Notes under the pieces: generated by a model
Told to the model about the DNA's origin: nothing
The model's input: only the letters and a program-made list of their open reading frames with translations
The model's database searches: none
Origin: Candidatus Hydrogenedentota bacterium
GTDB lineage: Bacteria; Hydrogenedentota; Hydrogenedentia; Hydrogenedentales; CAILVY01
Assembly (NCBI GenBank): GCA_903837785.1
Contig: CAILVY010000238.1
Coordinates: 40,116-104,115 of the forward strand
Reading direction: 5' to 3'
Length of the DNA: 64,000 nt
Shown: piece by piece, positions 2,824 to 41,737 of the stretch
Numbering within the stretch: position 1 is the first letter of the stretch
Layout: every line of letters starts with the position of its first letter
Position numbers and translations under genes: made by a program

Positions 2824-5508
2824 TTGTCAACCATGACTACGGCTATGATCTCAGCATGCTTGCTGCTGGCCTCGGCGACGCTGCCCGCGTGGGAATTCAA
2901 CAACGCCGACGAGCTTCACGTGTGGACGCCCAACGCCCATCTCGCCGAGGTGGCCGTGACGGACGGCGTGGTCCATGCCCGGGCAACGGATTGGGATCCG
3001 TTCTTTTCGTGCCGGCAGGTCGAGTTCACCGCGACGCCGTGGCAGTACCTGGTCGTGCGGATTAAGGCGAGTCAGCCGGGCAGCGGCGAGCTCTTCTGGA
3101 GCAAGGATCTCGAGGGGCAATATGGCGGCACCTCGCAAGAGAAGAGCACATCGTTCAACGTGAAGGGGGACGGCCAGTGGGAGGAGATCCCCATCTTCCC
3201 GTTTTGGCAGCGCGAGGGCCTCATTCGCCAGTTGCGTCTGGACCTCTATGACGACACCGCCTTCGACATCGACTGGATTCGCATCCTGGAATGGGGCGCG
3301 GGTGCCACGCCCTTGACGGATGGATACCGCTGGGAACTCGAAGGCGGAAAGCTGGATGCATGGCAAGTGCATCCGAACAGCTCCGATTACTTTGCTCCGC
3401 CGCTGGACTTGCCGCTCGAGGGGCGCGGCTGGGTTTCCATATGCCTCAGTGCCACGAAGGACGCCGAGGGTTGCGCGCTTTGGGCGGTGAAGGATCAGTG
3501 GCATGTCCAGTCCGAATCCTTCGCGATCCGCGGCGACGGTCGGAAACGCCATTACAACGTCGAAGTGGGCAGTTTTCCTTCCTGGGCCGAGCGCCTGTGC
3601 GCCTTCGGCCTGCGCCTGCCCCGCGAAGCGGGCATTCAGCTCGAGTCGGCCGCCATTGTCTTTGAGCCGGAAGGGCCGGGTGAACTCGCCGTGAACTACT
3701 TCGGCTTCGAGAACGGAGCGAACCGCGCCGGAAGGGCCTGCAGCGTCCTGGCGCAGTTCGAAAACCGGGGCGGCAGCCCGATCGACTTGATTGAGGCGCA
3801 ATTGCAGGTTCCGGACGGCCTGCAGGTGACGCGGGCGCCCGAAATGCCGGGCTTCACGGCGCTGGAATACGCGGATCTCGCCGAATTGCGGTGGGAAGTG
3901 ACCGCCGCCCGGCCCGGCACGTATGAAGCCTTCCTCGAACTGCCCGGTGGAATCGTCCCGGAGCCCCCCCGGACGGTCCTTCGATTTCTGCCGTCCGTGG
4001 AAGCGGCCCCGGCGGAGTATGTGCCCGCGCCGCGCCCGGTCCAGACGGACATCGACTTGTGCATGTACTACTTCCCCGGCTGGGCGACCGACGCTGCTTG
4101 GGACTGCATCCGGAGAGTTGCCCCGAATCGAAAACCGCTGCTCGGCTACTACGATGAGTCGCGTGTCGAGATCGTGGACTGGCAAATCAAGTGGGCGGTG
4201 GAAAACGGGGTGAAGTGCTATCTCGTGGACTGGTACTGGAACAAGGGCAACCAGCATCTCACGCACTGGTTCGAGGCCTATCGCAAGGCCCGCTATCGCG
4301 ATCAGCTCCAGGTGGCGATCATGTGGGCGAACCACAATCCACCCGGGTCGAACTCGCGCGAGGATTGGCGCACGGTCACGAAAGAGTGGATCGACCGCTA
4401 CTTCAACCTGCCCGCGTATTATCGCTTGAACGGGAAACCCGCGCTCTTCCTCTGGGACCCGAGCGCGCTGCGCAACGACCTGGGCGGTTCGGCGCAGGTG
4501 AAGGAGGCGCTGGCCGAGTCGCAGGCGATGGCGCAGGCGGCGGGCTATCCCGGCATCGAGTTCGTCGTGGTGAATGCGGACACGACATCCGGCCTCGTGA
4601 AGCAATTGGAAGAAGAGGGCTACGCCGGCGCCACGAACTATCACGAATGGGGGCGCGCGGTAGAAATGTCGCAAACTCCCAAGCGCGCCCGATATGAGGA
4701 TGTCGCGGCCACCGCGCCCGAGGCTTGGGCAAAACGCGACGCGATGTCGGGCTCGGTCATCTACTACCCGGATGTGGACACGGGCTGGGACTCGCGGCCC
4801 TGGCACGGGAGCAAGTCACTCGTGATCGAAGGACGTAGCGCGCCCCTGTTTGAGCGGTTGCTCGCGGAGGCCAAGCGCTTCAGCGAGGCGCACGACAAAC
4901 GGATGCTCGTATTCGGCCCGGCAAACGAATGGGGCGAGGGCAGCTATGTCGAACCATGCACGGAATACGATTTCGACATGATGGAGGCCATCCGGAAGGT
5001 TTTCGCAAAAGGCGATCCTTCAACCTGGCCCGTCAATATCGGCCCGTCGGACGTCGGGCTGGGCGGCTACGCCTTTCCGCCGTCGCCGCCGTTGGACTCC
5101 TGGGATTTCGAAAGGGATCCCGGCGGATGGAACGCGATGATGGGTGTATCGGCGTTGACTTGCGAAGCGGGTTGCCTGCGTTTCAAGACCACTTCGAACG
5201 ATCCGGCCATCAACGTGGCGCTGCCTAACGTCTACGCGAGAAAGCATCCGAAGGCGGTGCTTCGGATGAAGCTTGCGGGCGCGGCGCCGGGCGCGGCGGC
5301 ACAGCTCTTCTGGTCGGTCGGCGGCAGCAACACGAACGAAGCGGCCAGCATCAGCCTCCCGCTCCTGGCCGACGGCGAGTTTCACACGTACCTCCTGGAC
5401 CTTGCGTCGCGGCCGCGGTGGCGCGGGCGGATTGCCATGCTGCGCTTTGACCCGTGCAGCGCCGAGGGCGTCGAGGTGTTCATCGACTCGTTCAGCCTCG
5501 CGAAGTAA
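2824..5508 (+). CDS. Secreted multidomain protein with three repeated beta-sandwich domains flanking a TIM-barrel-like glycoside-hydrolase-like core
   Basis: The 894-aa protein has a signal peptide (MSTMTTAMISACLLLASATLPA). Related segments occur at the N-terminus (WEFNNADELHVWTPNAHLAEV...ELFWS), the middle (YRWELEGGKLDAWQVHPNSSDYF...) and the C-terminus (WDFERDPGGWNAMMGVSALTCEAGCLRF...QLFWS). The central region (VDWYWNKGNQH...MWANHNPPG...FGPANEWGEGSY) looks like a GH-like TIM barrel. A GGGAGG ribosome-binding site is upstream. Confidence 0.65.
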   Translation: MSTMTTAMISACLLLASATLPAWEFNNADELHVWTPNAHLAEVAVTDGVVHARATDWDPFFSCRQVEFTATPWQYLVVRIKASQPGSGELFWSKDLEGQYGGTSQEKSTSFNVKGDGQWEEIPIFPFWQREGLIRQLRLDLYDDTAFDIDWIRILEWGAGATPLTDGYRWELEGGKLDAWQVHPNSSDYFAPPLDLPLEGRGWVSICLSATKDAEGCALWAVKDQWHVQSESFAIRGDGRKRHYNVEVGSFPSWAERLCAFGLRLPREAGIQLESAAIVFEPEGPGELAVNYFGFENGANRAGRACSVLAQFENRGGSPIDLIEAQLQVPDGLQVTRAPEMPGFTALEYADLAELRWEVTAARPGTYEAFLELPGGIVPEPPRTVLRFLPSVEAAPAEYVPAPRPVQTDIDLCMYYFPGWATDAAWDCIRRVAPNRKPLLGYYDESRVEIVDWQIKWAVENGVKCYLVDWYWNKGNQHLTHWFEAYRKARYRDQLQVAIMWANHNPPGSNSREDWRTVTKEWIDRYFNLPAYYRLNGKPALFLWDPSALRNDLGGSAQVKEALAESQAMAQAAGYPGIEFVVVNADTTSGLVKQLEEEGYAGATNYHEWGRAVEMSQTPKRARYEDVAATAPEAWAKRDAMSGSVIYYPDVDTGWDSRPWHGSKSLVIEGRSAPLFERLLAEAKRFSEAHDKRMLVFGPANEWGEGSYVEPCTEYDFDMMEAIRKVFAKGDPSTWPVNIGPSDVGLGGYAFPPSPPLDSWDFERDPGGWNAMMGVSALTCEAGCLRFKTTSNDPAINVALPNVYARKHPKAVLRMKLAGAAPGAAAQLFWSVGGSNTNEAASISLPLLADGEFHTYLLDLASRPRWRGRIAMLRFDPCSAEGVEVFIDSFSLAK

Positions 5509-5626: not shown

Positions 5627-7252
5627 ATGTCACACTTCGGAACGCTCGACTGGTGCATACTTGCCGTCTATTTCATCGGGATAGCGTCCATCGGGCCGAT
5701 CTTTGCCCGGCGGAACAAATCCACGGAAGGCTATTTCCTGGGCAACCGCGAATTCCCGGCGTGGCTGCTGGGCCTGGCCATGTTCGCCACCTCCATCAGT
5801 TCGATCACGGTGGTGGCGTATCCCGCGGATGCGTACAAGACCGGCTACCTGCGCCTGCTGCCCGTGTTCATGCTGCCGCTGGGCATCTACATCGCCTCGA
5901 AAATCTTCCTGCCTTTCTTCCGGCGCGCCCAGTGCACGTCGACCTTTGAATATCTCGAGGGGCGCTTCGGCCCGGGCGTGCGCGTCTATGCGGCCATCGC
6001 CTTCCTGATCGGCCAGGTCATGCGCATCAGCACGATTCTCTATCTCGTTTCGCTGCTCTTCCAGCAGATGACCGGCGCCTCGCCGTTCGCCTGCATCTTC
6101 ATCGGCGGCGTGGTGATCGCGTTCTACACAGTCCTGGGCGGCATTCGCGCCATCGTCTGGGCGCAGTTCATCCAGTCCTTTCTGCTCTGGTTCGGCGCCA
6201 TCACCTGCATGGTTGTCTTGCTGCGCGGCATTGACGGCGGCTTCTCAACCGTGCTCTCGACCGCGTTTGCCGATGGCAAGTTCACCCTCGGCGATCCCAA
6301 CCCGGCCACGGGGGTCCTGGAGCGCGCGCCCTGGTTCTCCATTCAGGACAAAGCCATCCTGATGATGTTCGTTCTCGGGCTTCTGAACTGGTTAACCGAA
6401 TACAGCTGCAACCAGAACGTCATTCAGAAGTACGTGTCGGCGAAGAATCCGAGAGAAGCCACGAAGTCCATCTGGATCTGCTGCTTCTGCAGCGTGCCCA
6501 CCTGGACCTTCTTCATGTTCCTGGGCACCGCCCTGTATGTCTACTTCAAGCAGCACCCGGACCCGCAGGCGCTGGCCATCCTCACCGGCGCGGGAAATGC
6601 CAAAGCGGAATCCATCCTCCCCTACTTCTGCGTGCGGAACATTCCGACCGGGCTCGCGGGACTCGTGATCACCGGCGTCCTGTCCGCGGCCATGTCCGCC
6701 TCCTCTTCGAGCATCAGTTCGATCTCCGCGGTGAGCGTAACTGACATCTACCGGCGGCTCATCGTCAAGAACGGGAGTGACGCGCATTATGTGCTCGTGG
6801 CGCGCCTGATTTCCGCGGCCAGTTGCCTGCTCATGATGGGCGGCGCCTGCCTCTTCCTTTCCTTGAGCAAGCTCACGCTGCAGGACACCGGCGCAAAGCT
6901 GGCCGCCCTGATCGGCGGCGGCCTCTTCGGCATCTACATGCTCGGTTTCCTGACGAAGCGCGGCAACGGACGTTCCGTTGCCATCGGCATCGTTGCCACC
7001 GTTGCGTTCTCGGCCTACATGGCCGCGGCCCAGCTGGGGTGGATCTCGAAAGAACTGTATACCGGCCTCGGAGTCTCCGACGGTTGGGCCGCCTTCCTGA
7101 GCAAGCCGATGCACGTCTACTACGTGGGCCTGGCGGGTCACCTGCTCATCTTCTCCCTCGTCTACGTACTCGCCGTGCTGTTCGAGCGAAAGTCGCGCGA
7201 CCTCACAAATTACACGATCTGGACCACCCAGCCGCTGCCCAACGAGGAATAA
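5627..7252 (+). CDS. Sodium:solute symporter (SSS) family transporter
   Basis: The polytopic membrane protein MSHFGTLDWCILAVYFIGIASIG...YFLGNREFPAWLLGLAMFATSISSITVV... has the typical SSF N-terminus. The start was moved to the internal ATG at 5627. Confidence 0.8.
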   Translation: MSHFGTLDWCILAVYFIGIASIGPIFARRNKSTEGYFLGNREFPAWLLGLAMFATSISSITVVAYPADAYKTGYLRLLPVFMLPLGIYIASKIFLPFFRRAQCTSTFEYLEGRFGPGVRVYAAIAFLIGQVMRISTILYLVSLLFQQMTGASPFACIFIGGVVIAFYTVLGGIRAIVWAQFIQSFLLWFGAITCMVVLLRGIDGGFSTVLSTAFADGKFTLGDPNPATGVLERAPWFSIQDKAILMMFVLGLLNWLTEYSCNQNVIQKYVSAKNPREATKSIWICCFCSVPTWTFFMFLGTALYVYFKQHPDPQALAILTGAGNAKAESILPYFCVRNIPTGLAGLVITGVLSAAMSASSSSISSISAVSVTDIYRRLIVKNGSDAHYVLVARLISAASCLLMMGGACLFLSLSKLTLQDTGAKLAALIGGGLFGIYMLGFLTKRGNGRSVAIGIVATVAFSAYMAAAQLGWISKELYTGLGVSDGWAAFLSKPMHVYYVGLAGHLLIFSLVYVLAVLFERKSRDLTNYTIWTTQPLPNEE

Positions 7253-7386
7253 GCAAGGCGCCCTGCCCCTTGGCGCCGCCGGGTTGATTTCACGCCGAAG
7301 CGCATCCATACTTGTGTCGGCCAGTGATGCGGAAGTGGAGAGTCCATGCCGCTCATAAGGGGCGGCGCTTCGAGGGAGGACGGAGA

Positions 7387-8301
7387 ATGAGGCGCGGCGG
7401 ATTCACCCTGATTGAACTTCTGGTGGTCATCGCCATCATCGGGATACTGGCCGCCATCCTGCTGCCGGCGCTTTCCCGCGCGCGCGAGGCGGCGCGCCGC
7501 GCGAGTTGCCAAAACAACCTCAAGCAAATGGGTCTCGTCTTCAAGATGTATGCGAACGAGTCTCCCGGGCAGAAGTTCCCGCCGCTGCGGCGGCTGACCG
7601 GCTCGAATTGCCGGCCGCTCACACTCGCCCAGGCCGCCGTGCTCTGGACGCCGGACGGCCCCGCCATCTACCCCGAGTACGTCACGGATGTGAACATCTT
7701 CATGTGTCCCTCCGATGCCGACGGACGCATCGGGCCCGACAAGGAATTTCACTGCGGCGACGACCCGGCCCGGGAGTTCTGCCCCTGCAAATTCTACAAC
7801 ATCTCGTACAACTACTATGGCTGGGCCGTGAAACCGGAACATTATCTGCGCGCGCCGGTGGAAGTCACTCTCAACGATCCTCAATTTGACGTCTCTTCGC
7901 AGATGGACGCGGGCTTCAAGCAACAGCTCACAAACATGGTGATCGCCGTCCTCGCCACGCACGACATGAGCGCGTATGAAGACGATATGCCGTTCGATCA
8001 CGCCGATTTCGGGCCGAGTGCCATCTATCGCTTGCGCGAAGGCATCGAGCGGTTCTTCATCACGGACATCAACAATCCGGCCGCCACCGCCCGGGCCCAG
8101 AGTGACATCGCGATTCTGCACGACATGCTCGGCGCGACGCCGGTTGTGGACAGCTCCGTGGTGGCCAATCACATCCCCGGGGGAGGCAACGTGCTCTACC
8201 TGGATGGCCATGTTTCTTTTGTGCGCTATCCCGGCACGTGGCCCATCTGTGCCTCGTGGTCCATTATCATGTCCGACCCCATGGCGCTGCTCAGCTTCTG
8301 A
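7387..8301 (+). CDS. DUF1559-type protein with a prepilin-type N-terminal cleavage/methylation domain
   Basis: The N-terminus is [47 protein letters not shown] and the C-terminus is ...[24 protein letters not shown] ribosome-binding site lies upstream of the ATG at 7387. The stop overlaps the next gene's start (TGATG). Confidence 0.85.
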
Positions 8302-9500
8302 TGCGCGATTCATGGAAGCATAATCGTTGGCTTCAGGCGGCAGGCGCCGTGTGCCTGCTGGCGATCCTTGCTCTTCCGCTGTATATCGGACAGTCCTCGG
8401 AAACCGCGCCCATGCCGGCGGTCTCTCCGGAAGCGTGGGCGAGCCCGAATCTCCTCATCGACCGGAAGGACATCGATTCCATCAAGCAGGCCGTGGGGCG
8501 CAAGGATCCCGTGTTGACTGCCGCATGGCAGGACTTGTTCAAGACGGCGGACCCGATGTTGACGGACACGCCCGATCCGGTCGTGGGCGAGTTGAAGGTC
8601 CCCGGCTTTTATACGGCACAGCGCGAAACCCAGCAGCGCATCACGCGGCAGTTGCGGAAGGATGCGCGAACCGCCCATGCCCTCGCGCTGGCATTCGCCC
8701 TGTCCGGAAAGCCCGAATATGGGACGAAAGCGCGGGAATTCCTCTTTGCCTGGGTGCACTCCGTGACGAAGCCGGTGGATGCCGGTCCGTGGTGGCACAT
8801 CTACGATCTCGGGCATCGCGGCGACACGCCCCTCGTCGTTGCCTACAGCTTTCCGAGTTTCATCTACGCCTTTGATCTGTTGAAAGGCGAAGGCAGATTG
8901 AGTGAGGAAGACATTCAATCGTTTCGCGAATGGCTCCGCATCTTCGTGGCCTATCACCTCCGCGAAACCTGGTACAAGAACAACCACCACAACTGGCAGG
9001 TGCTCTTCCTCCTGTGTGCCGGGCATGCGCTCGAAGACCCGGCCCTTTTCGATCGCGCCGTGGCGTATTACCGGCACGGGCTTCGCACGCAGATTCGGGC
9101 GGATGGCGCGTTGCCCCGGGAACTGTGGCGCAAGGAGAAATCCGGAACGTATACGCTGATGGCTCTGGAGGCGATGGTTCAGGCCGTGCACATCGCGGAG
9201 CGTCACGGCTACGCCGGCATTCGCGACCTGCACTCCAGGAAAGGCGCCACGCTGGAAGATGCGTTGGACTTCTATATCCGGTATCTGGAGGATCCCGCGG
9301 CGTGGGCGAAGTTCACAAACGCCCGACAAGTAAACACGCCCGGGGAACCTTCGGATTGGGGATATATCTTTGAGCTTCCGTACCGCTGGTGGAAGAAAGA
9401 CCGCTATCTCGATTTCATGCTGAAGCGGCCCTACGGCTTTGGCGTGGAACGCTGCTACACGCTGGACTTCGCCACGCTCCTCTTTGCCCGGCCGCAATAG
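8301..9500 (+). CDS. Alginate-lyase-superfamily ((alpha/alpha) toroid polysaccharide lyase-like) protein
   Basis: There is a signal/TM segment ([28 protein letters not shown]). The NNHHNW motif matches the NNHxxW motif conserved in the alginate lyase / heparinase II/III superfamily, and Trp/Tyr-rich helical repeats follow. The gene is translationally coupled to the DUF1559 gene. Confidence 0.65.
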   Translation: MRDSWKHNRWLQAAGAVCLLAILALPLYIGQSSETAPMPAVSPEAWASPNLLIDRKDIDSIKQAVGRKDPVLTAAWQDLFKTADPMLTDTPDPVVGELKVPGFYTAQRETQQRITRQLRKDARTAHALALAFALSGKPEYGTKAREFLFAWVHSVTKPVDAGPWWHIYDLGHRGDTPLVVAYSFPSFIYAFDLLKGEGRLSEEDIQSFREWLRIFVAYHLRETWYKNNHHNWQVLFLLCAGHALEDPALFDRAVAYYRHGLRTQIRADGALPRELWRKEKSGTYTLMALEAMVQAVHIAERHGYAGIRDLHSRKGATLEDALDFYIRYLEDPAAWAKFTNARQVNTPGEPSDWGYIFELPYRWWKKDRYLDFMLKRPYGFGVERCYTLDFATLLFARPQ

Positions 9501-9515: not shown

Positions 9516-12500
9516 TCAGTTCCCGCCCAGCCGCATTGTCCATTCCGCAATGCGCTGCCGGTGCTGCCGGTACAGGCGTTCGTCCGTCGCGCTGTGCCAG
9601 ATGCGCCGGTCGCCCTGCTTCCGATAGTCGCGCGTTTCCACATACGCCAGGTCCGACAGTTCCATGATGTCGGTCTGCGCGATGCGCAATGCACGCTCCG
9701 CCTCGGCCATCGCCTCGGGATGCTTGCCCGTCTGCCGGCACCGGGCGATCGCTTCCTCGAGCAGGACCATCGCGCCCACGTCTTCGATGCCGTCGCGCAG
9801 CGCTTCCCAGCGTGCGCTCGGCACGGGCGGCACGCCCGGATAGACGAGGCCGTACTCGTCGTTGAAATCCTTGGCGCGCACCCAGGTGTCTTCCAGCGTG
9901 GTGCTGTGCGTCCACATGCCGATCCCGCTGAGCCCGAGGCGATGGGCGCGCCACGCGTTGGCGCGGTTGTAGCAGAGCGGCGACAGGCTCTTCACCTGGC
10001 TCACGCATTCATACGACCAGACCGGCTTTCCGCTCTGCAGGATGCGCTCGATGCGCGGATCCTTCGCGAGCAGCCCCGTCACGAGCCGCATGTTCGGGCA
10101 CCAGACATCAATCAGCGGCTCGATGCGCTGAAAGTCCTGCCAGCACAGTGACGGCACCGGGTCCGTGTAGATCCGAAGCTTGGGATCCGCCTCGCGGAAA
10201 AGCTCCGCGGCGTCCGTAAGCGCCGACAGGTTCTTGCCGAGATCGAGTCCGGGTTCGTCCACTGGGTAGAACGCGTAGTCCCCGTAATCCAGATTCTTCT
10301 CCGCGAGATGGTCGCGCAGGGCGCGGATATATGCAAGTTGCGCCGTGCGTTTCTCCGCATCGGAGGGCGGAGCCGCATGCGCGACTGCCGGGAGTCCCAC
10401 CTGCACCAGGATCTGTCCGCGGCCCCGGAGCAATTCGAGGTCCGCATCCAGCCTGCTCCAGTCGATGCTGAGATGCCCCTGGGCGTCCGCCTGGGCGGCC
10501 GGCACACTCGTGCGCGGATACACATTGACGCCGTGGCGGCCCATGTCATCGAGGGTCACGGCCGCACAGGATTCGGGAAACCACTTGTTGGGGACGTAAT
10601 CCCAAGTGCACAAGCGCAGCGGCGAAACTTCCGCAAGCGACAGGGGCAGCACCTCGATCTCGAAATCCAAATCGAGGCCGGCGACTTCGCGTTCCAGCGC
10701 CCGGACGTGAATCTTGCCGAGGTATTGTCCCGGTTTCGCGTCCTGCGCATCCACGCTGATCCACACTTTTGCGGCGTGTTGACCCGGAACGAGAAGCAGT
10801 TCCCCGCCGGCGAGCGCCGGCAGCGCATCGGCAACATATTCTCCGTTCAACGCCGGCACGGGCACCGCCTCACGCAGCGTGATTGCGCCGCCGAAGGGCA
10901 ATTTGTCCTCACGCGCCGGCCGGTCCATCGTGACGCGAAGGCGCCGCGCTTCCGGGAACGTGGAAGCCACCACGAAGGCGCCCTGATCCGCTTCGCCCTG
11001 ATACAGGCCTGTCACGCGCACCGACGGCTCGGCCGCGGCTTCCGGAATTATGACATCGGCGGCAAACGCGCCATGCGGGCACGCGGCCCAGGCGGTGATC
11101 TTATTCGGTGCGGGCACTTCCACGGCGGCGGCTTCGGGCGCCGGCCAGGATTCCTCGGCGAGCACGGTTCCGGACGCATCCTTAATCACCGCCCGCGCGG
11201 AGCGCGCATCGCTAGGCACGGGCAGTTCCCAGGCGGAGCGCGCCGTGAGGGCGCCCGTGATCACTCGTCTCGAACCGGGCCCTTCCGTGAACACATTGAC
11301 CGACAGCAAGCCGCCCTCCGGGTTGTTTATCAGGATGCGCGACACTTCGTTCACCCGCTCCGGAGCAAGCAGGGACACGGACACCTCTTTGGGCGTCCCC
11401 GCCGCGCCATAGGGCGAGACTGCCGGAGAAGGACTCAGCCGATATGCCAACAAGTACGAGGTGATGAGCACAATGCCCGGTTTCGGGCCGGCGATCACGA
11501 CTGGATTGGCGTTAAGCAGGCCGCTCAACAGCACATCGTCCGAAATCGTCCCGTCCTGCTTGAAAACATAGAGGTGGTGGGTGTAGCAGGGAACGAGAAT
11601 CTCGTCCTGGCCGTCGCCGTCCGCGTCGAAAAGCGCGGGACAGGCACGGGTCTTCCCGGGGAAGCGGTGCGTCCACAGCACGGTCCCCTCGAGGTTCAGC
11701 GCGTGAAGTGTGCCCCACAGACCGGTGCAGAGAATGACCCCTTGCTTTTCCGAATCCGCCGCGGGGCATATTGAAGCGATTTCCTCCCCCAGCGGGACCT
11801 TCCAGAGGATGCCGCCCCTCAGATCAAGCGCGGCCAGCGTGCCCTGTGCCGTGCCGCACAGTATCATCGCGTTCCCCGCCTTGTCCTTGTCTTCCACCGG
11901 CTCCGTGGACAATTCCTCCCCGAGATTCTGCGTCCACAACAGGTTTCCAAGGGGGTCCAAGGCGCAGAGCGAAGAACCCAGCGAGGCCAGGATGCAGGTG
12001 CCGCCGTCAGAAAGAACCAGTGAAAGCAAAGGCCCCTGACACGGACCCTTTTGTGGATTGACTTGCCAGACAGCTTTTCCGGACGCATCCAGACAGGTGA
12101 TCGCGCCGCTTTGATCGCCATAGCAGGCCAACACACCCGCCGCCGCACCCGTGCGGATCACCTTGGCCGGCAGGCCGCCGCCCCACGGCGTCTTCCCCGG
12201 CAATTGCGCTTCCCACGCCGGCTGGAACGCCCGGTCCAGCGCCGCAACCTTGCCTTCCACGCTGCAGAAGAGCCACTGCCGTGCCGCATCGTCGCCCAAC
12301 AAGCCCGGCGATGAGGTCCACTGGCCTTCGGGCAGGCGCGCCACGGCGCCATCCTGCCCCGAGCCCACCGGCGTGCCGTCTTCGCGCCAAACCATCACCT
12401 GCCCGAGACGGTTCACCGCAACAAGTTCGGGTTGGCCATCGCCGTCGCAATCGGCCCGCACGGGTGCGTTCTCGACCGGGTACTGGCCGGTCGGTTGAAC

Positions 12501-12569
12501 CCATTCGATCTTCATGGCCGAAGCCGAAAGGCAGCAGAGCAACGACATCACAACGAAACGCTTGATCAT
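9516..12569 (-). CDS. Secreted beta-propeller (FG-GAP/VCBS-like) protein with a C-terminal glycoside-hydrolase-like domain (possibly DUF4091/GH123-like)
   Basis: The signal peptide is MIKRFVVMSLLCCLSASA. The N-terminal half contains repeated DGDG/'LWT'/'VLWT' propeller-like blades. The C-terminal approximately 400 aa (DYVPNKWFPE...YECVSQV...NAWRAHRLGLSGIGMWTHS) resembles a TIM-barrel GH-like domain. Confidence 0.6.
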   Translation of the reverse strand: MIKRFVVMSLLCCLSASAMKIEWVQPTGQYPVENAPVRADCDGDGQPELVAVNRLGQVMVWREDGTPVGSGQDGAVARLPEGQWTSSPGLLGDDAARQWLFCSVEGKVAALDRAFQPAWEAQLPGKTPWGGGLPAKVIRTGAAAGVLACYGDQSGAITCLDASGKAVWQVNPQKGPCQGPLLSLVLSDGGTCILASLGSSLCALDPLGNLLWTQNLGEELSTEPVEDKDKAGNAMILCGTAQGTLAALDLRGGILWKVPLGEEIASICPAADSEKQGVILCTGLWGTLHALNLEGTVLWTHRFPGKTRACPALFDADGDGQDEILVPCYTHHLYVFKQDGTISDDVLLSGLLNANPVVIAGPKPGIVLITSYLLAYRLSPSPAVSPYGAAGTPKEVSVSLLAPERVNEVSRILINNPEGGLLSVNVFTEGPGSRRVITGALTARSAWELPVPSDARSARAVIKDASGTVLAEESWPAPEAAAVEVPAPNKITAWAACPHGAFAADVIIPEAAAEPSVRVTGLYQGEADQGAFVVASTFPEARRLRVTMDRPAREDKLPFGGAITLREAVPVPALNGEYVADALPALAGGELLLVPGQHAAKVWISVDAQDAKPGQYLGKIHVRALEREVAGLDLDFEIEVLPLSLAEVSPLRLCTWDYVPNKWFPESCAAVTLDDMGRHGVNVYPRTSVPAAQADAQGHLSIDWSRLDADLELLRGRGQILVQVGLPAVAHAAPPSDAEKRTAQLAYIRALRDHLAEKNLDYGDYAFYPVDEPGLDLGKNLSALTDAAELFREADPKLRIYTDPVPSLCWQDFQRIEPLIDVWCPNMRLVTGLLAKDPRIERILQSGKPVWSYECVSQVKSLSPLCYNRANAWRAHRLGLSGIGMWTHSTTLEDTWVRAKDFNDEYGLVYPGVPPVPSARWEALRDGIEDVGAMVLLEEAIARCRQTGKHPEAMAEAERALRIAQTDIMELSDLAYVETRDYRKQGDRRIWHSATDERLYRQHRQRIAEWTMRLGGN

Positions 12570-12748
12570 GGGATCACCTTTCTCCGGGCGGCGCGCCGAA
12601 CACATTCTAAGCCACGCCGTCCCGCGAGTACAGATTCAAATCAGGAACCCCATTTGACTGCTTGCCGGAAGCGCCCGGGCACGCCAGTTGCTTTTTGGGG
12701 GGAACGAACGATATCTTGGAACAACTTACTCTTAGGAGACTGGGAACC

Positions 12749-14578
12749 GTGAAGCTTCGAAACTGGGCCATCATGCTGTTGCCGGGCTTGCTCCTGGCGT
12801 CCCTCGCCGCGGCGGAAAACTATCTTTCGCCGCTGGTTTTGACCGCGGACCGCGAGGGCAAGACATTGTATGTCGCGGAGTCCGGCGCCAACCAGGTGGC
12901 CGTCTTCGACGTCGGCGGCACGGCGGTGGCCAAGGCCCTCCCCGTTCCCGGCACGCCCGGCGGCCTGGCGCTGTCGCCCGACGGCAAACTGTTGTATGTG
13001 ACGGAAGCCGCGCCGCAAGGCCGGGTCCACGCCCTGGATCTTGCCGCGGGAACCGTGGCCTTCTCCGTGCCGGTGGGACACACCCCCGGAGCGCCCGTGC
13101 TGAGCCCGGACGGCGCAACGCTCTTCGTGTGCAATCGTTTCAACAACAACGTCTCCGTGGTGGACATCGCGTCCAAGGCCGAAACCGCCCGGATTCCGGT
13201 TTCGCGCGAACCGGTCGCCGCGGCCGTTACGCCGGATGGCAAGAGCCTCTTTGTCGCCAATCTTCTTCCGGCCGGAACCTCCGACGGGGATTATTCCGCC
13301 GCGGTCGTGTCCGTCATTGACACGGCCTCACGACAAGTGGCCGTCGAAATCAAACTGCCCAACGGATGCTCGAGTCTCCGCGGACTCTGCATTTCCCCGG
13401 ACGGCGCCTTTGTCTACGTGACGCATCTGCTCTCCCGCTATCAATTGCCGACCACGCAACTGGAGCGCGGCTGGATGAACACGAACGCCATCAGCGTGGT
13501 CGACGCCGCACAGCGCACGCTGGTGAATACCGTGCTGCTGGATGACGTGGACCTCGGCGCGGCGAACCCCTGGGGTGTTGCGTGCAGCGGCGACGGCAAG
13601 TTCCTGTGCGTGGCGCAGGCGGGCACGCACGAAATCAGCGTGATCGATCGCGCGGGCCTGCAGGACAAACTGGCGAAAGTGGCCGCGGGCGAAAAAGTAT
13701 CGGAGGTCTCGCAGACCGCCGCCGACGTGCCGAATGACCTCGCCTTCCTTGTGGGACTGAAACGGCGCATCGCCCTGAAGGGCAACGGGCCGCGCGGACT
13801 GGCCGTGGTCGGCGCCACCGCCTATGCCGCGGAGTATTTCACGGACAGCCTGGGTGTAGTGAACATCGATCCGGCTTCCCGCGCGGAAGCGAAGTCCATT
13901 GCGCTGGGCCCGAAGACTGAAATGACTGCCGTCCGCAAGGGCGAGATGTTCTTCAATGATGCCGGGCTGTGCTTCCAGCACTGGCAATCCTGTGAAAGCT
14001 GCCATCCCGATGCCCGGGTGGACGGCCTGAATTGGGATCTCATGAACGACGGCATCGGCAATCCGAAGAATACCCGGAGCATGTTGATGACGCATCAAAC
14101 CCCTCCGGTGATGAGTCTGGGCGTGCGCGAGACCGCGGAGAAAGCCGTGCGCTCGGGCATCCGTTTCATCCAGTTCGCCGTGCGCCCCGAAGAGGACGCC
14201 GTCGCCATCGACGAATACCTGAAGTCCCTGAAGCCGGTGCCGAGTCCCTATCTCGTGGACGGCAAGCCCAGCGCGGCCGCCGAGCGCGGCGCGAAGCTCT
14301 TTGAACAGGCGGGTTGTGCGGCCTGTCATCCCGCCCCGTTGTACACTGACTTGCAGCAGTACAATCTGGGGCTGGGCAGAGACAGCGAAAAGGACAAGTC
14401 CTTTGACACGCCCACGCTCGTGGAAGTCTGGCGCACGGCCCCCTATCTGTACGATGGGCGCGCGGCGTCCATGCGCGACCTCTTCGCCAAGTTCAACACG
14501 GAAGGAAAGCACGGCAACACGGCCGGTCTCAGCGACGCCGAAATGAACGACCTGATCGAATACGTGCTGAGCCGCTAG
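12749..14578 (+). CDS. YVTN-type beta-propeller fused to a di-haem cytochrome c peroxidase-like domain
   Basis: A GTG start at 12749 is preceded by AGGAGA (alternative ATG starts at 12662 and 12773). A signal peptide is present. Repeated 'SPDGK/TL(Y/F)V(T/A)N' blades are visible. Two CxxCH haem-binding motifs are present (CESCHP and CAACHP). Confidence 0.75.
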   Translation: MKLRNWAIMLLPGLLLASLAAAENYLSPLVLTADREGKTLYVAESGANQVAVFDVGGTAVAKALPVPGTPGGLALSPDGKLLYVTEAAPQGRVHALDLAAGTVAFSVPVGHTPGAPVLSPDGATLFVCNRFNNNVSVVDIASKAETARIPVSREPVAAAVTPDGKSLFVANLLPAGTSDGDYSAAVVSVIDTASRQVAVEIKLPNGCSSLRGLCISPDGAFVYVTHLLSRYQLPTTQLERGWMNTNAISVVDAAQRTLVNTVLLDDVDLGAANPWGVACSGDGKFLCVAQAGTHEISVIDRAGLQDKLAKVAAGEKVSEVSQTAADVPNDLAFLVGLKRRIALKGNGPRGLAVVGATAYAAEYFTDSLGVVNIDPASRAEAKSIALGPKTEMTAVRKGEMFFNDAGLCFQHWQSCESCHPDARVDGLNWDLMNDGIGNPKNTRSMLMTHQTPPVMSLGVRETAEKAVRSGIRFIQFAVRPEEDAVAIDEYLKSLKPVPSPYLVDGKPSAAAERGAKLFEQAGCAACHPAPLYTDLQQYNLGLGRDSEKDKSFDTPTLVEVWRTAPYLYDGRAASMRDLFAKFNTEGKHGNTAGLSDAEMNDLIEYVLSR

Positions 14579-17045: not shown

Positions 17046-18017
17046 TCAGCCGGCCTTCCCCGGCTTGTCCTGCAGCGCCGGGATAAAATCGTCCACGTCA
17101 AACACGAAGCCGTAGGCCAGCGCCACGCGCCACAACGCCTGTTCCTTCTCCAGCTCGTGTTTTGCGCTCTCCTTGCTCTCCACGGCCGTCGTCGCCTGGC
17201 GCAGCGCGGAGCACATCACCCCGTACTGCTGCATGTCCGCCATGCCTCCCGGCGACAACAACAGGCACCAGTTGATCGCAAAGCCGCAGTACACGAGGTG
17301 ATTGATGCCGTGGTGCCGACACAGCGCGAAAAGCTGCCGGCCGTTCTCCGCGACGCCTTCTTCCCCCAACGGCCGCGCCTGCGGCGCGAAATCCAGCCGC
17401 GCGAAACCGCGCTCCACATCGGCCGCGTTGTGCGTGCCGACAAACACGTTCGCGTTCCGAAACGCGTCGAGCTGTTTGCGTTGTTCATCCCGGGGAACCT
17501 GGCCGGGCGGCGGCAGCGGCGGGCCGGCGAGTTCCAGCGCCCGCTTGTACCCCGGCAGCTCCTGATAGTAGTTCCCGCTGCCCACAACGTGGAACAGCGT
17601 CAGCCCCGAGGCGCGCACCGCCGACAGGAGCGGGGGAAACACCTGCTCGAGAATCGCATTCGCGCGGGCGATATACGGAACGCAGCGCCACCACCCCGGG
17701 AACTGTTCGCGTGTCCCCGCATCCCAAGCGTGCATCACGACGATCGCCGTGTGCGTCTTCGGAAAATCGAGCTCGGCCTTCTTCCATCCGCCAAAATGCT
17801 CCTCCGGCACGGGCAGATCGAAGTCTGCATCGAAATGCTGATAGAACCACGCGGGAATCCGCAGGAGCGGACCCCCCGCGGCCGCCTCAGGCACCGCCGG
17901 CGCGGCCGCCGTGCCGGACACGCCCAACATGGGCGCCGCAAGGCCGCCTCCCAAGGCCACGCTTACCCGCGTCAGCATGGACCGCCGCGTCATATTTCCG
18001 CGCTTGCCGTTTGTCAT
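17046..18017 (-). CDS. Tat-signal protein, isochorismatase-family-like cysteine hydrolase (tentative)
   Basis: A twin-arginine-like leader is present (MTNGKRGNMTRRSMLTRVSVALGGGLAAP). The segment LVYCGFAINWCLLLS resembles the isochorismatase-family catalytic Cys region. The start was set at the internal ATG at 18017. Confidence 0.45.
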   Translation of the reverse strand: MTNGKRGNMTRRSMLTRVSVALGGGLAAPMLGVSGTAAAPAVPEAAAGGPLLRIPAWFYQHFDADFDLPVPEEHFGGWKKAELDFPKTHTAIVVMHAWDAGTREQFPGWWRCVPYIARANAILEQVFPPLLSAVRASGLTLFHVVGSGNYYQELPGYKRALELAGPPLPPPGQVPRDEQRKQLDAFRNANVFVGTHNAADVERGFARLDFAPQARPLGEEGVAENGRQLFALCRHHGINHLVYCGFAINWCLLLSPGGMADMQQYGVMCSALRQATTAVESKESAKHELEKEQALWRVALAYGFVFDVDDFIPALQDKPGKAG

Positions 18018-18249
18018 GATCGAGCCCTTTCGCGCTGGCTCCCGATACGATAGCCGTTCCCGGACGGCCCCGCAAACGGATAGTCGAGGCGGGATGCAGT
18101 CCCCTCGGCGCGGAGCGAAGGCCCGGCACCCCGGGCGACGCGTGCCAAGCACGAGCCGGAGATATTCATGCAGGCTGCCGTGTGTTGCCCGTTCCGTTCT
18201 CTCCGACAAGAAACGTCATGCCGGAAGTATGGCAGGCAGCGGCCCGAAC

Positions 18250-19848
18250 TCAAGGATGGATCGTCTTGATGAACACTGGTGTGGCCGACAGGGGAATCTC
18301 GACAACGCCGTTATTCGCGGGGATCTTGACCACGTCCGTGTCGTCCTGGCCGGGTTGGGTGATGAGCTTCTCGACGCCCACTTCCGGCGCGTCCGTCTCG
18401 AGCGTGATTGTCGTTTCGGGCACGGCGTCGCCGGGCAGCACGAGCTGCGCGGGATAGTACCACGCGATCCAGAAGTCCGGCAGGCCCAGGCCCTCCGTGT
18501 GACGGACGCGATAGAGCCGCACGTCCGCGTTCGCGATGGGAACGCGCTCGACGACGTTATACGAATCGAGTTCGTAGGCGACTTGCCGCAGCGCGTAGAA
18601 GAGGGGCCGGCGCCCTTTGACAATGTGTTCCTGTGTGAAGAAGTTGAGCCTGGTTTCAACCATGCCGGCCCAGGCCGCATTGCCCGCGCCCGCGCGGAAC
18701 AGCGGCGTGTTGAGCGGAAACAGGTCTTCGATAAAGCTCGTGTTCAGGAACTCGATGCCCTGTTCGGCGGCCACAATCGTCATCCGCGCCATGTCTTCCG
18801 CAACGAAGCCGCGAACCCAGTCCAGCGTGTCCGGGTCCCCGTTAACAAGAAGCGTGAAGTAGTCCGCGAGGCGGCAGCGGTCCGCTTCGGTTGCGGGGGC
18901 AAGCAAGATGCCGAGCGAAGCGGGATCCCCCTGGCAGGTCGTGGCCGCGCCCCAGCCCACGAACGGCGATGGCGACGTGTCGGACACAATCAACGGCTTG
19001 TCGTAGCCGCGGCTGTCCATCTCGAAACGGAGCCAGCGAATCGTGGCCTCCAGTTCCTGCGCGCCCGCCAGGCAATGGAAATTGAGCGCGTCGAACAATT
19101 CGGGCCGGTCGAGGATCGCGCGGATCTCCGCGAGCGAATGATACAGGATGCGCGGGTCCACCGCGGCGAACGCGGCCTCGTATTCGTCCGGGCCGGGATT
19201 GCTGTCAAATGCGGTCGTCGTTAGGAACGGGACCTGGAGCACCACGACATCGGGATACGCCGCGTGCGCGGCCTGATACGCCGCTTCGAGCATGCCGAGG
19301 TAGTCCTGCACGGGCTCGGGTTCATACGTCGAGAATTCGACGCCGATTTCGTAGTAGCGGATGGGATACTTCAGTCCGGGCAGGTCAGCGGTGCCGTCGC
19401 CATCGTAGCGCTCGATGACCGCACCGACCCACGCCGCGTAGTCGTCCATGAACTCGGGTTTCGGCGCGAAATTCGTGTCGGGCAGCGCTGCATTCGGCGC
19501 AATTGACGCCCAGTCACTTTCCGACTTCAGTCCGATCATGCACTCGGCGAAGCCCGCTCCCTGATACTCCTTCACGAGCCGATCGAGCATCTTGAAATCG
19601 ATCGAGGCAGCGGCCGAGGACTGCATTTTCCCCCAGCCGATGAGATCAGGCAGGAACTTCACGCCCGGCAGACGCGTTTGCGCAAGTCCCTCCGCCGAGC
19701 CCGGCAGGGCATATTCCATGCCGATGACGAGCGGCGTCTTCGCCGGCGTCACCGGCGCCGGAGGCGGGCAGCCCACCATCAACGCCAGCACCGCAAGTCC
19801 AATCAAGGCACCTCCGCGTCGCAGGCAACAGCTCCCCATGCGCTCCAT
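18250..19848 (-). CDS. Lipoprotein, glycoside-hydrolase-like (TIM-barrel) protein
   Basis: A signal peptide with a lipobox-like LMVGC is present. GGAGG is positioned to drive Met4 (19848). The protein contains YYEIGVEFSTYEP and aromatic-rich GH-like segments. Confidence 0.5.
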   Translation of the reverse strand: MERMGSCCLRRGGALIGLAVLALMVGCPPPAPVTPAKTPLVIGMEYALPGSAEGLAQTRLPGVKFLPDLIGWGKMQSSAAASIDFKMLDRLVKEYQGAGFAECMIGLKSESDWASIAPNAALPDTNFAPKPEFMDDYAAWVGAVIERYDGDGTADLPGLKYPIRYYEIGVEFSTYEPEPVQDYLGMLEAAYQAAHAAYPDVVVLQVPFLTTTAFDSNPGPDEYEAAFAAVDPRILYHSLAEIRAILDRPELFDALNFHCLAGAQELEATIRWLRFEMDSRGYDKPLIVSDTSPSPFVGWGAATTCQGDPASLGILLAPATEADRCRLADYFTLLVNGDPDTLDWVRGFVAEDMARMTIVAAEQGIEFLNTSFIEDLFPLNTPLFRAGAGNAAWAGMVETRLNFFTQEHIVKGRRPLFYALRQVAYELDSYNVVERVPIANADVRLYRVRHTEGLGLPDFWIAWYYPAQLVLPGDAVPETTITLETDAPEVGVEKLITQPGQDDTDVVKIPANNGVVEIPLSATPVFIKTIHP

Positions 19849-19989
19849 GGCATCCATCCTCCATTGTGCTCACGCGCCTGATGCGGCTCACGAAAGGAAC
19901 CGGCTCAAGCCACCCAGACACTCACGTTACAGGCCATGCGCAACGCCGTTACGCGCCCGTTCTCCCGCCTCAAACGTGAATTAGCTCGT

Positions 19990-22411: not shown

Positions 22412-23086
22412 TCACTTCCCGAAAACTTCGACCTCGACGTAGTTGTTCATTGGGTTGGCGCTGTTGCCATTGGAGTAGCAGCGGACAAAACGGGCCTTGA
22501 CGCCGTCTACTTTCATCAAGCGGCCCCGGTTATTCTCGATATACTCCTTGTCCTTGCCCACGCCAAGGCCGGAGGAGTTGTCATAGTCGTTGTTATAGAT
22601 TGTGGTCACGCCCGTCTTGAAATCGGCATCGCTGGCAAGTTGCACCACGAGGTCGAAGTAGACGCGCTTCTCCTTGTGGGCATGCCATATCAAGACGGCC
22701 TGAATGGCGCGCTCCTCTTGCAGGTCAACCTGCACCCACTGCACGCCTGAATCCAGTTCAACGAGGCTGTTGTTCTCGAAGCGCTTGTCGCCGTCCGTGA
22801 CTTGTTTCCATCCGCCCAGCACCGGTTCCTTGGCGCTCGCGGCGACGGGCTTGCCTTTGGACAGGAGCGCGGTGCCCTGGGGCACCAGGAGCGGCGGACG
22901 TTCCTTGTACTCCTCGGGTTCAAGATTGGGACTCCAGTGTTCGCAGGGCGTGCCCTGGTTGGAGGCTTCGGGAAGTTCAATCTTCAGCGGCTCCAGCGTG
23001 TTGGCCTCCGCCGCATGAACGGATGCCGGAAGAGCCAGAAGAAGAGTCAGCGCAACCATCGCGGCGATCGACATTTTCGTGTTCAT
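22412..23086 (-). CDS. Secreted discoidin (F5/8 type C)-domain protein, paralog 1
   Basis: GAGGAGA sits 7-8 nt before the ATG at 23086. The signal peptide is MNTKMSIAAMVALTLLLALPASVHA. The F5/8-C-like core reads WVQVDL...IQAVLIWH. It is about 75% identical to the downstream paralog. Confidence 0.65.
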   Translation of the reverse strand: MNTKMSIAAMVALTLLLALPASVHAAEANTLEPLKIELPEASNQGTPCEHWSPNLEPEEYKERPPLLVPQGTALLSKGKPVAASAKEPVLGGWKQVTDGDKRFENNSLVELDSGVQWVQVDLQEERAIQAVLIWHAHKEKRVYFDLVVQLASDADFKTGVTTIYNNDYDNSSGLGVGKDKEYIENNRGRLMKVDGVKARFVRCYSNGNSANPMNNYVEVEVFGK

Positions 23087-23187
23087 TCGCGGTCTCCTCG
23101 TGTTTGTGCCTGCGGCGATCTTCTGCACATCTCCCAAGCCAACAGACGCGGCGCGGAGCCGCTTTATTCAACAGGGCCGGCCGTTTC

Positions 23188-24241: not shown

Positions 24242-25003
24242 TCAGCGCTTCTTGATGGCCAGTCCGCTCTTGGCAGGCGCTTTCGGGGCGGGTCGGCCGG
24301 GGTTGTAGTCCCGCGGCCGTCTCGGCCCCTCGGAATCGGGCGGGTTCGTCAGGTACGTGGCGGGGTCATCGAAAGCGATGCCCACCGGCTGTATCGGAAG
24401 ATACCGCCCCGCGAACCCCGGATACTTGACGAAGGCCACCGAGCAGTCCAGGAAGAGCACGTTTGACCCGCCCGGAATGTGGTTGAAGGTGTTGACGTTC
24501 GCCGCATAGCCCGTAAGGTCCCACATCAGCGGCTGCGGCGGCGTCCCCCGCTCGGGCGGCGGCAACACGATGGGAGTGGTGGTGTAAGCACCGAGGTAGT
24601 CATAGCTGCAGCGCAGGCTGGCCTGCGACTCGACACTCGTATTGAGCGGAAGGGGCAGCCGTTCCCTGTCGTCACTGAAGAAGTTGCCCGGGTTTGTATT
24701 GGCATCGGAGGGACAGATGTACGTTCGGATGTCGCTCAGGTAATTCCGGTGGAGGCCAAGCAGGCAGTCGGCATTGTTCTTGCCGCCGCTCCAGGGCAAT
24801 TGCCCCGTGTTCTCCTCCGCATACATCACCAGCGCCATGCCCAACTGATTCAGGTTGGAGGCACAGCTGCCGCGACGTGCCGCTTCCCGCGCCCGCGCGA
24901 GCGCGGGGAGCAAGATGGCCGCGAGGATGCCGATGATCGCAATGACCACCAGCAACTCAATCAGGATGAAGGCGTTCCTGCGGAATTTCCCGGAGTGGTT
25001 CAT
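24242..25003 (-). CDS. DUF1559-type protein with a prepilin-like N-terminus (second copy in window)
   Basis: The N-terminus is [53 protein letters not shown] and the C-terminus is ...[18 protein letters not shown]. It is the last gene of the T2SS-like operon. Confidence 0.8.
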
Positions 25004-25050: not shown

Positions 25051-25503
25051 TCATGATGCCCGCCGCTCCACGTGCCACCGGTACTGGGTGACGGTCCCAT
25101 CCGGCCCGAAGCTTAGGTCCGCCTGAAGCACGCACCGCGCCCAGAGGTGGTTCTCCGTCCCCCGCTCGCCGGTGGCGCGCAGCACATAGTCCCCGGGACC
25201 CGCGCCGCGCGTTACCTCGACGGCAAAGCGGCCGCCGTCCAGCCAGGTGTCTTTTTCACCCGTGTATGGACGCTTCGCACGCAACTCCGCGATCGCCTTG
25301 TCCAGGCCCGCTTCCGCGAGGCATTGCGCCACCGCGTCGTTTTCGGTCCGCTGGCCCTGTTTCAGCGTGACGTGCAGGTAGCTCCACACCGCGCCCGCGC
25401 CGATGCCCATCACGGCAACCAGCATAATCGCCATGATGAGTGCCGCGCCGCGCCGGCGGACTTCCGACCGTGCAGTGGAAATCTGCGGTGTGCTGTGCTT
25501 CAT
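25051..25503 (-). CDS. Pseudopilin-like small membrane-anchored protein (non-canonical: no Glu+5)
   Basis: [39 protein letters not shown]... has a basic leader followed by one hydrophobic helix. GGAGA is 7 nt upstream. Its ATG overlaps the upstream stop (ATGA). Confidence 0.45.
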
Positions 25504-40503: not shown

Positions 40504-40566
40504 ACATGCTCCTCCTGCCGTTGGCATACCACAGGCATTGCGGGATGTGCAAAAAAGTCCGCGCGA

Positions 40567-41709: not shown

Positions 41710-41737
41710 CGGTGATTGGTCTGCAGGCAGCGGTGGT

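Follow-up and report, generated by a model that had tools for sequence, protein, structure and literature searches.

Recurrent pairing and likely translational coupling of a DUF1559 prepilin-type gene with a PL5/PL38-like lyase gene in Hydrogenedentota-like bacteria

Introduction

The DUF1559 proteins are among the largest uncharacterised paralog families of Planctomycetota, and an enzyme partner with a predictable activity would offer an experimental entry point to their function. Planctopirus limnophila carries 68 copies, two of them essential, and no function has been assigned to them (PMC10632474). Tuwongella immobilis has 91 copies of DUF1559/SBP_bac_10, and its genes combining N_methyl and SBP_bac_10 domains are reportedly often flanked by genes for proteins with type-I or type-II signal peptides, with products found in membrane fractions (PMC8567305). 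Here we describe a DUF1559 gene from a Candidatus Hydrogenedentota bacterium whose stop codon shares a base with the start codon of a predicted polysaccharide lyase gene. It lies in a stretch of 64,000 nucleotides (contig CAILVY010000238.1, positions 40,116 to 104,115), referred to below as the window. An initial annotation, made from the sequence alone, took the overlap to mean that the two products are made in equal amounts and work together. The locus therefore raises the question of whether this pilin-like protein is functionally linked to the enzyme encoded after it or is a passenger in a cluster for polysaccharide use. Our analysis supports a recurrent association between the two genes, and we tentatively relate it to the export or positioning of the enzyme.

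Results

Recurrence and likely coupling of the gene pair

Loci for comparison were gathered with each of the two proteins as a starting point; for the lyase, this was done by genome and metagenome scans and by exact-protein look-ups. The overlap reported by the initial annotation is real, and the ATG within it is in frame with the lyase open reading frame (ORF; Table 1). A DUF1559 gene followed by a lyase gene, with the same one-base overlap, was found in two further metagenome contigs from different samples: L017, whose proteins are 68-71% (DUF1559) and 65% (lyase) identical to those of the window, and L035, where the DUF1559 identity is 69%. The flanks of the pair differ among the three. A sodium/solute symporter (SSF) gene lies upstream in the window, whereas the flanking genes are a DUF4432 gene and an IF-2B-family gene in L017 and a chromate transporter gene in L035. 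These unrelated flanks suggest that the pair behaves as a self-contained two-gene module.

The pair carries the marks of a bicistron: a stop/start overlap, a distal gene that has no Shine-Dalgarno (SD) sequence of its own, and a junction kept in the window, L017 and L035. A GGAGG-type SD precedes every DUF1559 gene examined, including those of L017, L035, L034 and L007. No SD was seen in the 35 nt before the window lyase start, and none of the three coupled lyases has one (0/3). Among the uncoupled lyases, an SD-like motif is present in L013 and L036 and a purine-rich stretch in L011 and L012. A strong SD before DUF1559 and none before the coupled lyases is what one would expect of a lyase gene translated by termination-reinitiation. 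Judging from the sequence, translational coupling of the two genes is plausible and indeed likely, but not necessarily equimolar; the equal expression that had been read into the junction is not something an overlap can show. Overlaps of 1 or 4 nt are ordinary: elsewhere in the window, at least four more co-directional gene pairs share a 4-nt overlap. What is informative about this junction is its conservation together with the SD-less lyase, not the overlap as such.

Public gene calls differ on where the lyase begins. One (P0001) starts at GTG 8349, giving a protein of 383 aa and leaving a gap of 47 nt after the DUF1559 gene, and another (P0184) starts at ATG 8301, giving 399 aa in frame with the ORF that ends at 9500. 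We favour ATG 8301 because L017 and L035 have the identical 1-nt overlap, because the first 17 residues of the longer form resemble those of the L013 orthologue, and because only this form has a charged n-region before its hydrophobic segment.

The association is not confined to overlapped pairs. The lyase forms a small separate subfamily and a rare one: of 1.84 billion representatives, only about 11 full-length 50%-identity clusters score E < 1e-100, and beyond these the scores fall steeply to those of the general superfamily. Two further loci encoding this subfamily have a DUF1559 gene within 1.2 kb of the lyase gene. In L034 the order is DUF1559, CE4 deacetylase and lyase, all co-directional, and in L007 a divergent AraC regulator gene stands between the lyase and DUF1559 genes. 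The DUF1559 proteins of these loci represent other lineages (44-49% identical to the window copy). Our own DUF1559 hidden Markov model (HMM) was run on all ORFs of the loci. It detected five DUF1559 genes in the lyase-derived loci, which comprise about 200 kb of Hydrogenedentota-like sequence, and four of the five lie within 1.3 kb of a lyase gene (random-placement test, p = 0.0037; p = 0.017 if the window and L017 are taken as one event). These results support the conclusion that DUF1559 genes occur near this rare lyase subfamily more often than random placement predicts.

The DUF1559 protein

The protein begins with MRRGG/FTLIELLVV (the slash marks the predicted cleavage point), a class III signal in which G5 is followed by F6 and the glutamate of position +5 is E10, and continues with a long N-terminal helix and a globular domain. 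The initial annotation had called it a pilin-like member of DUF1559, and four models bear this out: N_methyl (PF07963) with 33.4 bits (cut-off 21.2), TIGR02532 with 31.9 bits (cut-off 16.3), PF07596 (SBP_bac_10/DUF1559) with 44.7 bits (gathering threshold 23.3), and the H-X9-DG C-terminal model TIGR04294 with 23.7 bits (cut-off 19) over residues 264-280. The PF07596 match is restricted to residues 31-68, corresponding to profile positions 2-37 of 268. Across 36 DUF1559 homologues, G5, F6 and E10 are invariant, as is the C-terminal motif, whose actual spacing here is H-X10-DG (H262-X10-D273-G274-H275).

The GspG equivalog TIGR01710 matched residues 5-56 only, with 35.3 bits against a cut-off of 88.85, and the C-terminal T2SSG domain (PF08334) has no match in the protein. 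Because the equivalog match is N-terminal only and below cut-off, we regard the protein as pilin-like but not as a GspG orthologue; it may work like a pseudopilin. Its AlphaFold2 (AF2) model, with a predicted local distance difference test score (pLDDT) of 88, consists of a 50-residue N-terminal helix and a globular domain, and about 190 residues had no solved counterpart in a PDB structure search. We rejected the solute-binding role implied by the Pfam name SBP_bac_10, as neither structure search returned a binding-protein fold. Searches of Pfam and NCBIfam detected no carbohydrate-binding domain or motif.

The family is large in Hydrogenedentota-like bacteria, with at least 8000 proteins at E < 1e-20; among the 120 matches listed, identity to the query is 48-100%. 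DUF1559 had first been discussed as a family abundant in the Planctomycetes-Verrucomicrobia-Chlamydiae (PVC) group, and this framing does not fit the window. All named best matches of both proteins are metagenome-assembled genomes of Candidatus Hydrogenedentes/Hydrogenedentota, a phylum that NCBI places in the Fibrobacteres-Chlorobi-Bacteroidetes (FCB) group. The DUF1559 family here is nevertheless the same one that is expanded in Planctomycetota. In the literature on H-X9-DG, PF07596 and pilins of Hydrogenedentes we found nothing on function.

The lyase

The second product was recognised from the start as a member of the alginate-lyase superfamily with an NNHHNW motif, and the HMM analysis agrees (PF05426 Alginate_lyase, E 4.7e-33, 115.3 bits against 22.2). 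The motif lies at residues 227-232, and the catalytic set N228, H229, R277 and Y284 is present. Among 68 relatives, N228, R277 and Y284 never vary, and H229 is kept in 60. A profile built from 21 family members matched BACOVA_01668 (3nfv, 2e-24), BoPL38 (2e-16) and the PL5 enzymes AlgL, A1-III, Smlt1473 and PanPL (about 1e-11). The AF2 model (pLDDT 92.8) is an all-helical repeat, that is an (alpha/alpha) toroid, and Foldseek aligned it with 3nnb, BoPL38, A1-III and AlgL at probability 1.00 and template-modelling (TM) scores of 0.6-0.7 (about 0.68 to the first three). H229 and Y284 align with the catalytic H243 and Y298 of BoPL38, the spacing being 55 residues in both proteins. Identity to any solved PL5 or PL38 enzyme is 16-22%, and the protein is about equally far from both families.

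The NCBIfam cut-offs were missed widely, with 59.8 against 366 bits for the best 'polysaccharide lyase' model and lower scores still for the AlgL models, which indicates that the lyase is not an AlgL orthologue. Based on fold and residues, we predict that the protein is very probably active, as a polyuronate lyase of PL5/PL38 type that acts by beta-elimination. It is also predicted to be targeted to the envelope, its N-terminal hydrophobic segment serving as a signal or an anchor.

Genes of the window

The pair closes a block of four co-directional genes on the + strand, in which gaps of 118 nt and 134 nt separate the WbsX/GH99-like gene from the SSF gene and the SSF gene from DUF1559 (Table 1). 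The secreted glycoside hydrolase-like and symporter genes thus stand as the initial annotation had them, except for one start codon: the first ORF is open from TTG 2824, the start given at that time, and the public gene call begins at ATG 2833 (891 aa), which is the likelier start. The solved sequences nearest to its product are GH99 endo-alpha-mannosidases, at E 1e-5 only. The product of the convergent propeller-GH123-like gene matches a beta-N-acetylgalactosaminidase (PDB 8k2f, E 1e-6). A scan for promoters and terminators gave sites no more numerous than in shuffled sequence. There is a weak hairpin 3' of the SSF stop (7269-7283), the SSF-DUF1559 spacer folds no better than its shuffles (z = -1.05), and Rfam gave zero matches across the window.

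A gene set resembling those of type II secretion systems (T2SS) and type IV pili (T4P) lies 16 kb from the pair on the opposite strand, and its last gene encodes a second DUF1559 protein. This protein matches the GspG model N-terminally and our own DUF1559 HMM at E 2e-43, and it has AFILIE where the first has GFTLIE. Among the three small prepilin-like ORFs of the operon, one is weakly GspK-like (4e-7) and one weakly PilV-like (1e-3). No gene for a GspE ATPase, a secretin or a prepilin peptidase was found near the operon, and the 64 kb showed neither a peptidase nor an ATPase gene. Each of the two DUF1559 genes lies directly upstream of genes for secreted carbohydrate-binding or carbohydrate-active proteins. 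That the second one ends a pseudopilin operon, upstream of secreted carbohydrate-binding proteins, supports a pseudopilin role.

Table 1. Features of the DUF1559-lyase locus and of the T2SS-like operon in the window
Feature	Position	Strand	Basis or remark
Secreted multidomain protein with central WbsX/GH99-like TIM-barrel domain	2833..5508	+	Pfam Glyco_tran_WbsX E 8e-23; weak GH99 match
Na+/solute symporter, SSF family	5627..7252	+	PF00474 E 2e-32; TIGR00813 E 4e-53
Shine-Dalgarno-like sequence GAGGGAGGA, 6 nt upstream of the DUF1559 start	7372..7380	+	Read from sequence
DUF1559 / H-X9-DG prepilin-type protein, 304 aa	7387..8301 (ATG 7387, TGA 8299-8301)	+	
TGATG stop/start overlap (TGA of DUF1559, ATG of lyase, one shared base)	8299..8303	+	Sequence; same overlap ATGTGATG in L017 and L035
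PF05426 Alginate_lyase protein, 399 aa, PL5/PL38-like	8301..9500	+	Pfam, profile, AF2/Foldseek
FG-GAP/PQQ-type beta-propeller fused to GH123-like catalytic domain; convergent neighbour	9516..12605	-	Pfam PQQ_2, GH123_cat
DUF4838/GH67N-like protein	19990-22320	-	Downstream of second DUF1559
Two paralogous secreted F5/8-type-C (CBM32-like) proteins	23258-23938, 22412-23137	-	Downstream of second DUF1559, after 303 nt
Second DUF1559, 253 aa, ...RNA/FILIELLVV; last gene of T2SS-like pseudopilin operon	24242..25003	-	Pfam N_methyl + SBP_bac_10
Three small prepilin-like ORFs	26036-26464, 25500-26039, 25051-25557	-	Prepilin-like G/xxxxE N-termini
Two GspF/PilC-like proteins	28020-29240, ~26461-27720	-	T2SSF and GspF matches, E 5e-80 and 4e-34

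Several other genes of the window deserve mention. Directly upstream of the block of carbohydrate-active genes is a pair encoding an MntA-like nucleotidyltransferase antitoxin and a HepT-like RNase toxin (1810-2715, +). This pair is not found in L013, the syntenic locus of the closest relative, where a GH123 gene and a radical SAM gene lie upstream instead. A gene for a B12-binding radical SAM protein (353-1780, -) keeps the same position in L013 and L014. Beside the propeller-GH123 gene, in the window as in L013 (77% identical), is a gene for a YVTN-type beta-propeller fused to a MauG/di-haem cytochrome c peroxidase-like domain (12662-14578, +); it matched hydrazine-synthase beta/gamma models at E 1e-50, with 172 bits far below the cut-off of 1250. 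Between the aminotransferase and DUF4838 genes lie two ORFs of 387 and 535 aa (17046-19857, -) whose coding statistics are good and for which neither Pfam nor NCBIfam gave a significant family.

Farther along are genes for CheW and two methyl-accepting chemotaxis proteins (31382-36328, +), the second of which (34532-36328) is probably shadowed by the - strand ORF at 34142-36265. A cluster of exopolysaccharide (EPS)/O-antigen type (38783-45648) encodes a SAM methyltransferase, a GT4 glycosyltransferase, a 483-aa protein without a family and a GNVR-like chain-length protein, all on the - strand, and, on the + strand, a UDP-GlcNAc 2-epimerase; the long ORFs that run along the + strand (38813-44050) seem to be shadows of the genes opposite (GC1 > GC3). 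It is followed by an ammonium transporter, P-II and glutamine synthetase trio (51516-54858, +). Further carbohydrate-active genes occupy 54979-61871: a GH127-like gene with Laminin_G_3, a fucosidase-like gene with a twin-arginine translocation (TAT) signal and a GH4 gene, all on the - strand, with an MttB-family methyltransferase gene (+) between them.

Further loci

In two loci (L007, 2769-4513; L037, 552-2313), DUF1559 genes of two lineages are followed after about 30 nt by an adh_short short-chain dehydrogenase/reductase (SDR) gene. As this SDR has no signal peptide, not every DUF1559 partner is secreted. Two serine recombinase/resolvase genes lie directly upstream of DUF1559 in L031. A partial ORF upstream of the lyase gene in L036 was considered as a GspG-like C-terminal domain and dropped, since it found no support from Pfam, NCBIfam or PDB sequences.

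When L013 (9929-10001) is compared with the window (7253-8303), the DUF1559 ORF is cleanly absent from L013. TGATGC occurs at the lyase start in both, and again in the window at 7325-7330, within the SSF-DUF1559 spacer. No convincing scar or flanking direct repeat was found at DUF1559 in this comparison, and the alignments are ambiguous; the gene may have been removed by a microhomology-mediated deletion. Since L017 and L035 share the identical overlap, parsimony favours a loss of the gene in the L013 lineage over a gain in the window.

Discussion

Our studies indicate that a DUF1559 gene and a gene for a PL5/PL38-like lyase form a conserved pair. The mechanism we tentatively prefer, as possible rather than probable, is that of a coupled pseudopilin and envelope lyase, in which a T2SS/T4P-like machine exports the lyase or positions it at the surface. 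The DUF1559 protein would be a GspG-like pseudopilin or pilin subunit, cleaved between G5 and F6 by a prepilin peptidase. The lyase, having no ribosome-binding site of its own, would most probably be translated by ribosomes terminating on the pilin ORF, so that one mRNA would yield both proteins at a single membrane site. The machine encoded 16 kb away would then use the pseudopilin to bring its co-encoded lyase to the cell surface, much as happens in Klebsiella with the lipoprotein pullulanase PulA. There the lyase would cleave an acidic polysaccharide by beta-elimination and the symporter would take up the products, in keeping with a polysaccharide-utilisation cluster that also includes the GH99/WbsX-like enzyme and the convergent propeller-GH123-like enzyme. 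Processing and assembly of the pilin, its contact with the lyase and an acidic substrate are the steps that we infer.

A number of observations weigh against this mechanism. The closest relative (L013/L014) has the same cluster without DUF1559: B12-radical SAM, GH-like (74%), SSF (80%), lyase (76%), propeller-GH123 (66%), propeller-cytochrome (77%), response regulator and aminotransferase genes. In L013 the lyase gene begins 73 nt beyond the SSF gene, behind an SD-like GAGGA of its own, which means that the lyase has no need of DUF1559 in cis. DUF1559 was likewise not found in the available sequence of ten further loci whose lyases are at least 55% identical, nor in that of eight loci that are more distant. 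Of the eight DUF1559 homologues that are closest and of known context, five are not beside a lyase gene. In three loci (L018, 10001-12352; L030, 390-2472; L031, 3982-6388) a DUF1559 gene whose product is 69-72% identical converges on a DegT/DnrJ/EryC1 aminotransferase gene, in L037 it precedes the gene of the cytoplasmic SDR, and L019 has other neighbours. A neighbour-joining tree places the three lyase-coupled copies in one clade with copies sited elsewhere. A lipobox-like Cys in the orthologues of L017, L035, L034, L007, L021, L033 and L036 suggests that most of these lyases are lipoproteins, but the window lyase has no canonical lipobox; it has AAGAVC inside the hydrophobic stretch, and L013 likewise has AAG[AS]VC, so that by sequence these two look like signal-anchor or type-I proteins. 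To our knowledge, no cargo-specific pseudopilin has been described in a classical T2SS. The view that DUF1559 is an integral part of the transporter/carbohydrate-active enzyme operon must be given up, given that the operon recurs in the nearest relative with no DUF1559 gene and that the pair occurs elsewhere with unrelated neighbours. The association of DUF1559 and lyase is thus real but facultative.

Some of these observations also speak for the absence of a specific link. In that case a member of this large and promiscuously scattered paralog family would have landed before the lyase gene in an ancestor. Operon inertia would have preserved it, since the lyase by then relied on translation from upstream, and the L013 lineage would have lost it at no cost; the pilin would act alone, for example as a generic subunit of a pseudopilus or pilus. 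In addition to the otherwise identical cluster of L013/L014, most lyase loci lack DUF1559, its closest homologues adjoin DegT, SDR or unknown genes, 4-nt overlaps are common in the window, and the enrichment becomes no more than marginal when events are counted instead of loci. Against this explanation stand the three arrangements, with three DUF1559 lineages, beside one rare lyase subfamily, the overlapped pair that stayed intact while its flanks changed completely, and the placement test (p = 0.004-0.017). We consider this explanation somewhat unlikely, while giving it more weight than those that follow.

It is also conceivable that the pilin captures substrate. A fishing model has been proposed for planctomycete fibres. 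By analogy, a retractable fibre or short pseudopilus would bind acidic polysaccharide through the globular domain of DUF1559 and pass it to an envelope-bound lyase, the resulting oligomers or monomers entering through the symporter. A pilin-like architecture with some 190 extra residues that match no PDB structure would suit such a role, as would the position of the gene between those of the transporter and the lyase and the presence of other DUF1559 paralogs beside a CE4 deacetylase and lyase and beside CBM32-like proteins. On the other hand, Pfam and NCBIfam detected in the protein no domain or motif for carbohydrate binding, no periplasmic-binding-protein fold was matched despite the name SBP_bac_10, L013 manages without DUF1559, and SSF transporters are not known to use binding proteins. 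Capture by the pilin is unlikely. Least probable by a wide margin is an AlgL-like housekeeping role, in which the lyase would rid the periplasm of acidic exopolysaccharide made by the cell itself and DUF1559 would belong to the polymer-export machinery of the envelope: the fold and catalytic set are common to AlgL and there is an EPS-type cluster at 38.8-45.6 kb (GT4, methyltransferase, GNVR-like, UDP-GlcNAc 2-epimerase), but that cluster is 30 kb off and unlinked to the pair in L017, L035 or L013, the symporter and glycosidase-like enzymes next to the pair make a catabolic context, and the AlgL equivalogs of NCBIfam score far below their cut-offs.

Returning to a coupled pseudopilin and envelope lyase, one may extend the idea to the family as a whole and propose that DUF1559 paralogs are cargo- or substrate-specific pseudopilin adaptors, each paired with one secreted or lipoprotein enzyme. 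We regard this extension as speculative and quite improbable. If it were true, the very large DUF1559 expansions in Planctomycetota, Hydrogenedentota and their relatives would be a modular code telling a T2SS/T4P-like machine which envelope enzyme to export or display, and this bicistron would be the first such pair in which the activity of the partner can be assayed. The L013 lineage provides a natural comparator that lacks DUF1559. A real link would bear on the way in which these polysaccharide-degrading bacteria place enzymes within their envelope or beyond it; without one, the locus would be a polysaccharide-utilisation cluster of the ordinary kind that carries a pilin gene as a passenger.

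Both families were already known, as was the habit of DUF1559 genes of adjoining signal-peptide genes. Two things appear to be new: a conserved, putatively translationally coupled DUF1559-lyase bicistron, and, in a phylum that does not belong to PVC, the repeated association of DUF1559 genes from different lineages with a single rare subfamily of lyases. In the literature we found no enzyme of a named family described as a conserved, translationally coupled partner of DUF1559.

Comparison with known systems

In Sulfolobus, sugar-binding proteins with class III prepilin-like signal peptides are assembled into a bindosome by a pilus-like system. The window resembles this, as a lead only, in having a prepilin-type signal on a protein that is encoded in a sugar-uptake context beside a transporter. 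It differs in that no binding-protein fold was detected, the transporter is a symporter and not an ABC system, and the host is bacterial and not archaeal.

With the DUF1559 proteins of Planctomycetota, the window protein shares the N-terminal prepilin motif, the region just after it and the H-X9-DG-type motif at the C-terminus. It departs from them in its Hydrogenedentota-like host, in a central domain so diverged that only profile positions 2-37 of 268 are matched, and in the H-X10-DG spacing. Like the T. immobilis genes (PMC8567305), the window gene is flanked by a gene for a signal-peptide protein.

The likeness to GspG/PulG lies in the first 52 residues, which match the GspG model; the predicted structure may also have the pilin-type helix-plus-sheet architecture. 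The DUF1559 protein is, however, about 170 residues longer, scores 35 against 88.85 bits, and does not have the T2SSG C-terminal domain. As in the Pul system with PulA, the partner is a polysaccharide-degrading enzyme that is targeted to the envelope and is a probable lipoprotein in most orthologues, and genes for GspF- and GspK-like proteins and a second DUF1559 are present in the same window. The window lyase differs from PulA in having no canonical lipobox. The Pul pseudopilin is not known to be encoded beside its cargo, to be coupled to it or to be cargo-specific.

Finally, the lyase belongs to a small separate subfamily only 16-22% identical to the PL5 enzymes A1-III, AlgL, Smlt1473 and PanPL, to BoPL38 of PL38 and to BACOVA_01668 (3nfv/3nnb), and with all of these it shares the (alpha/alpha)-toroid fold and the N-H...R...Y catalytic set.

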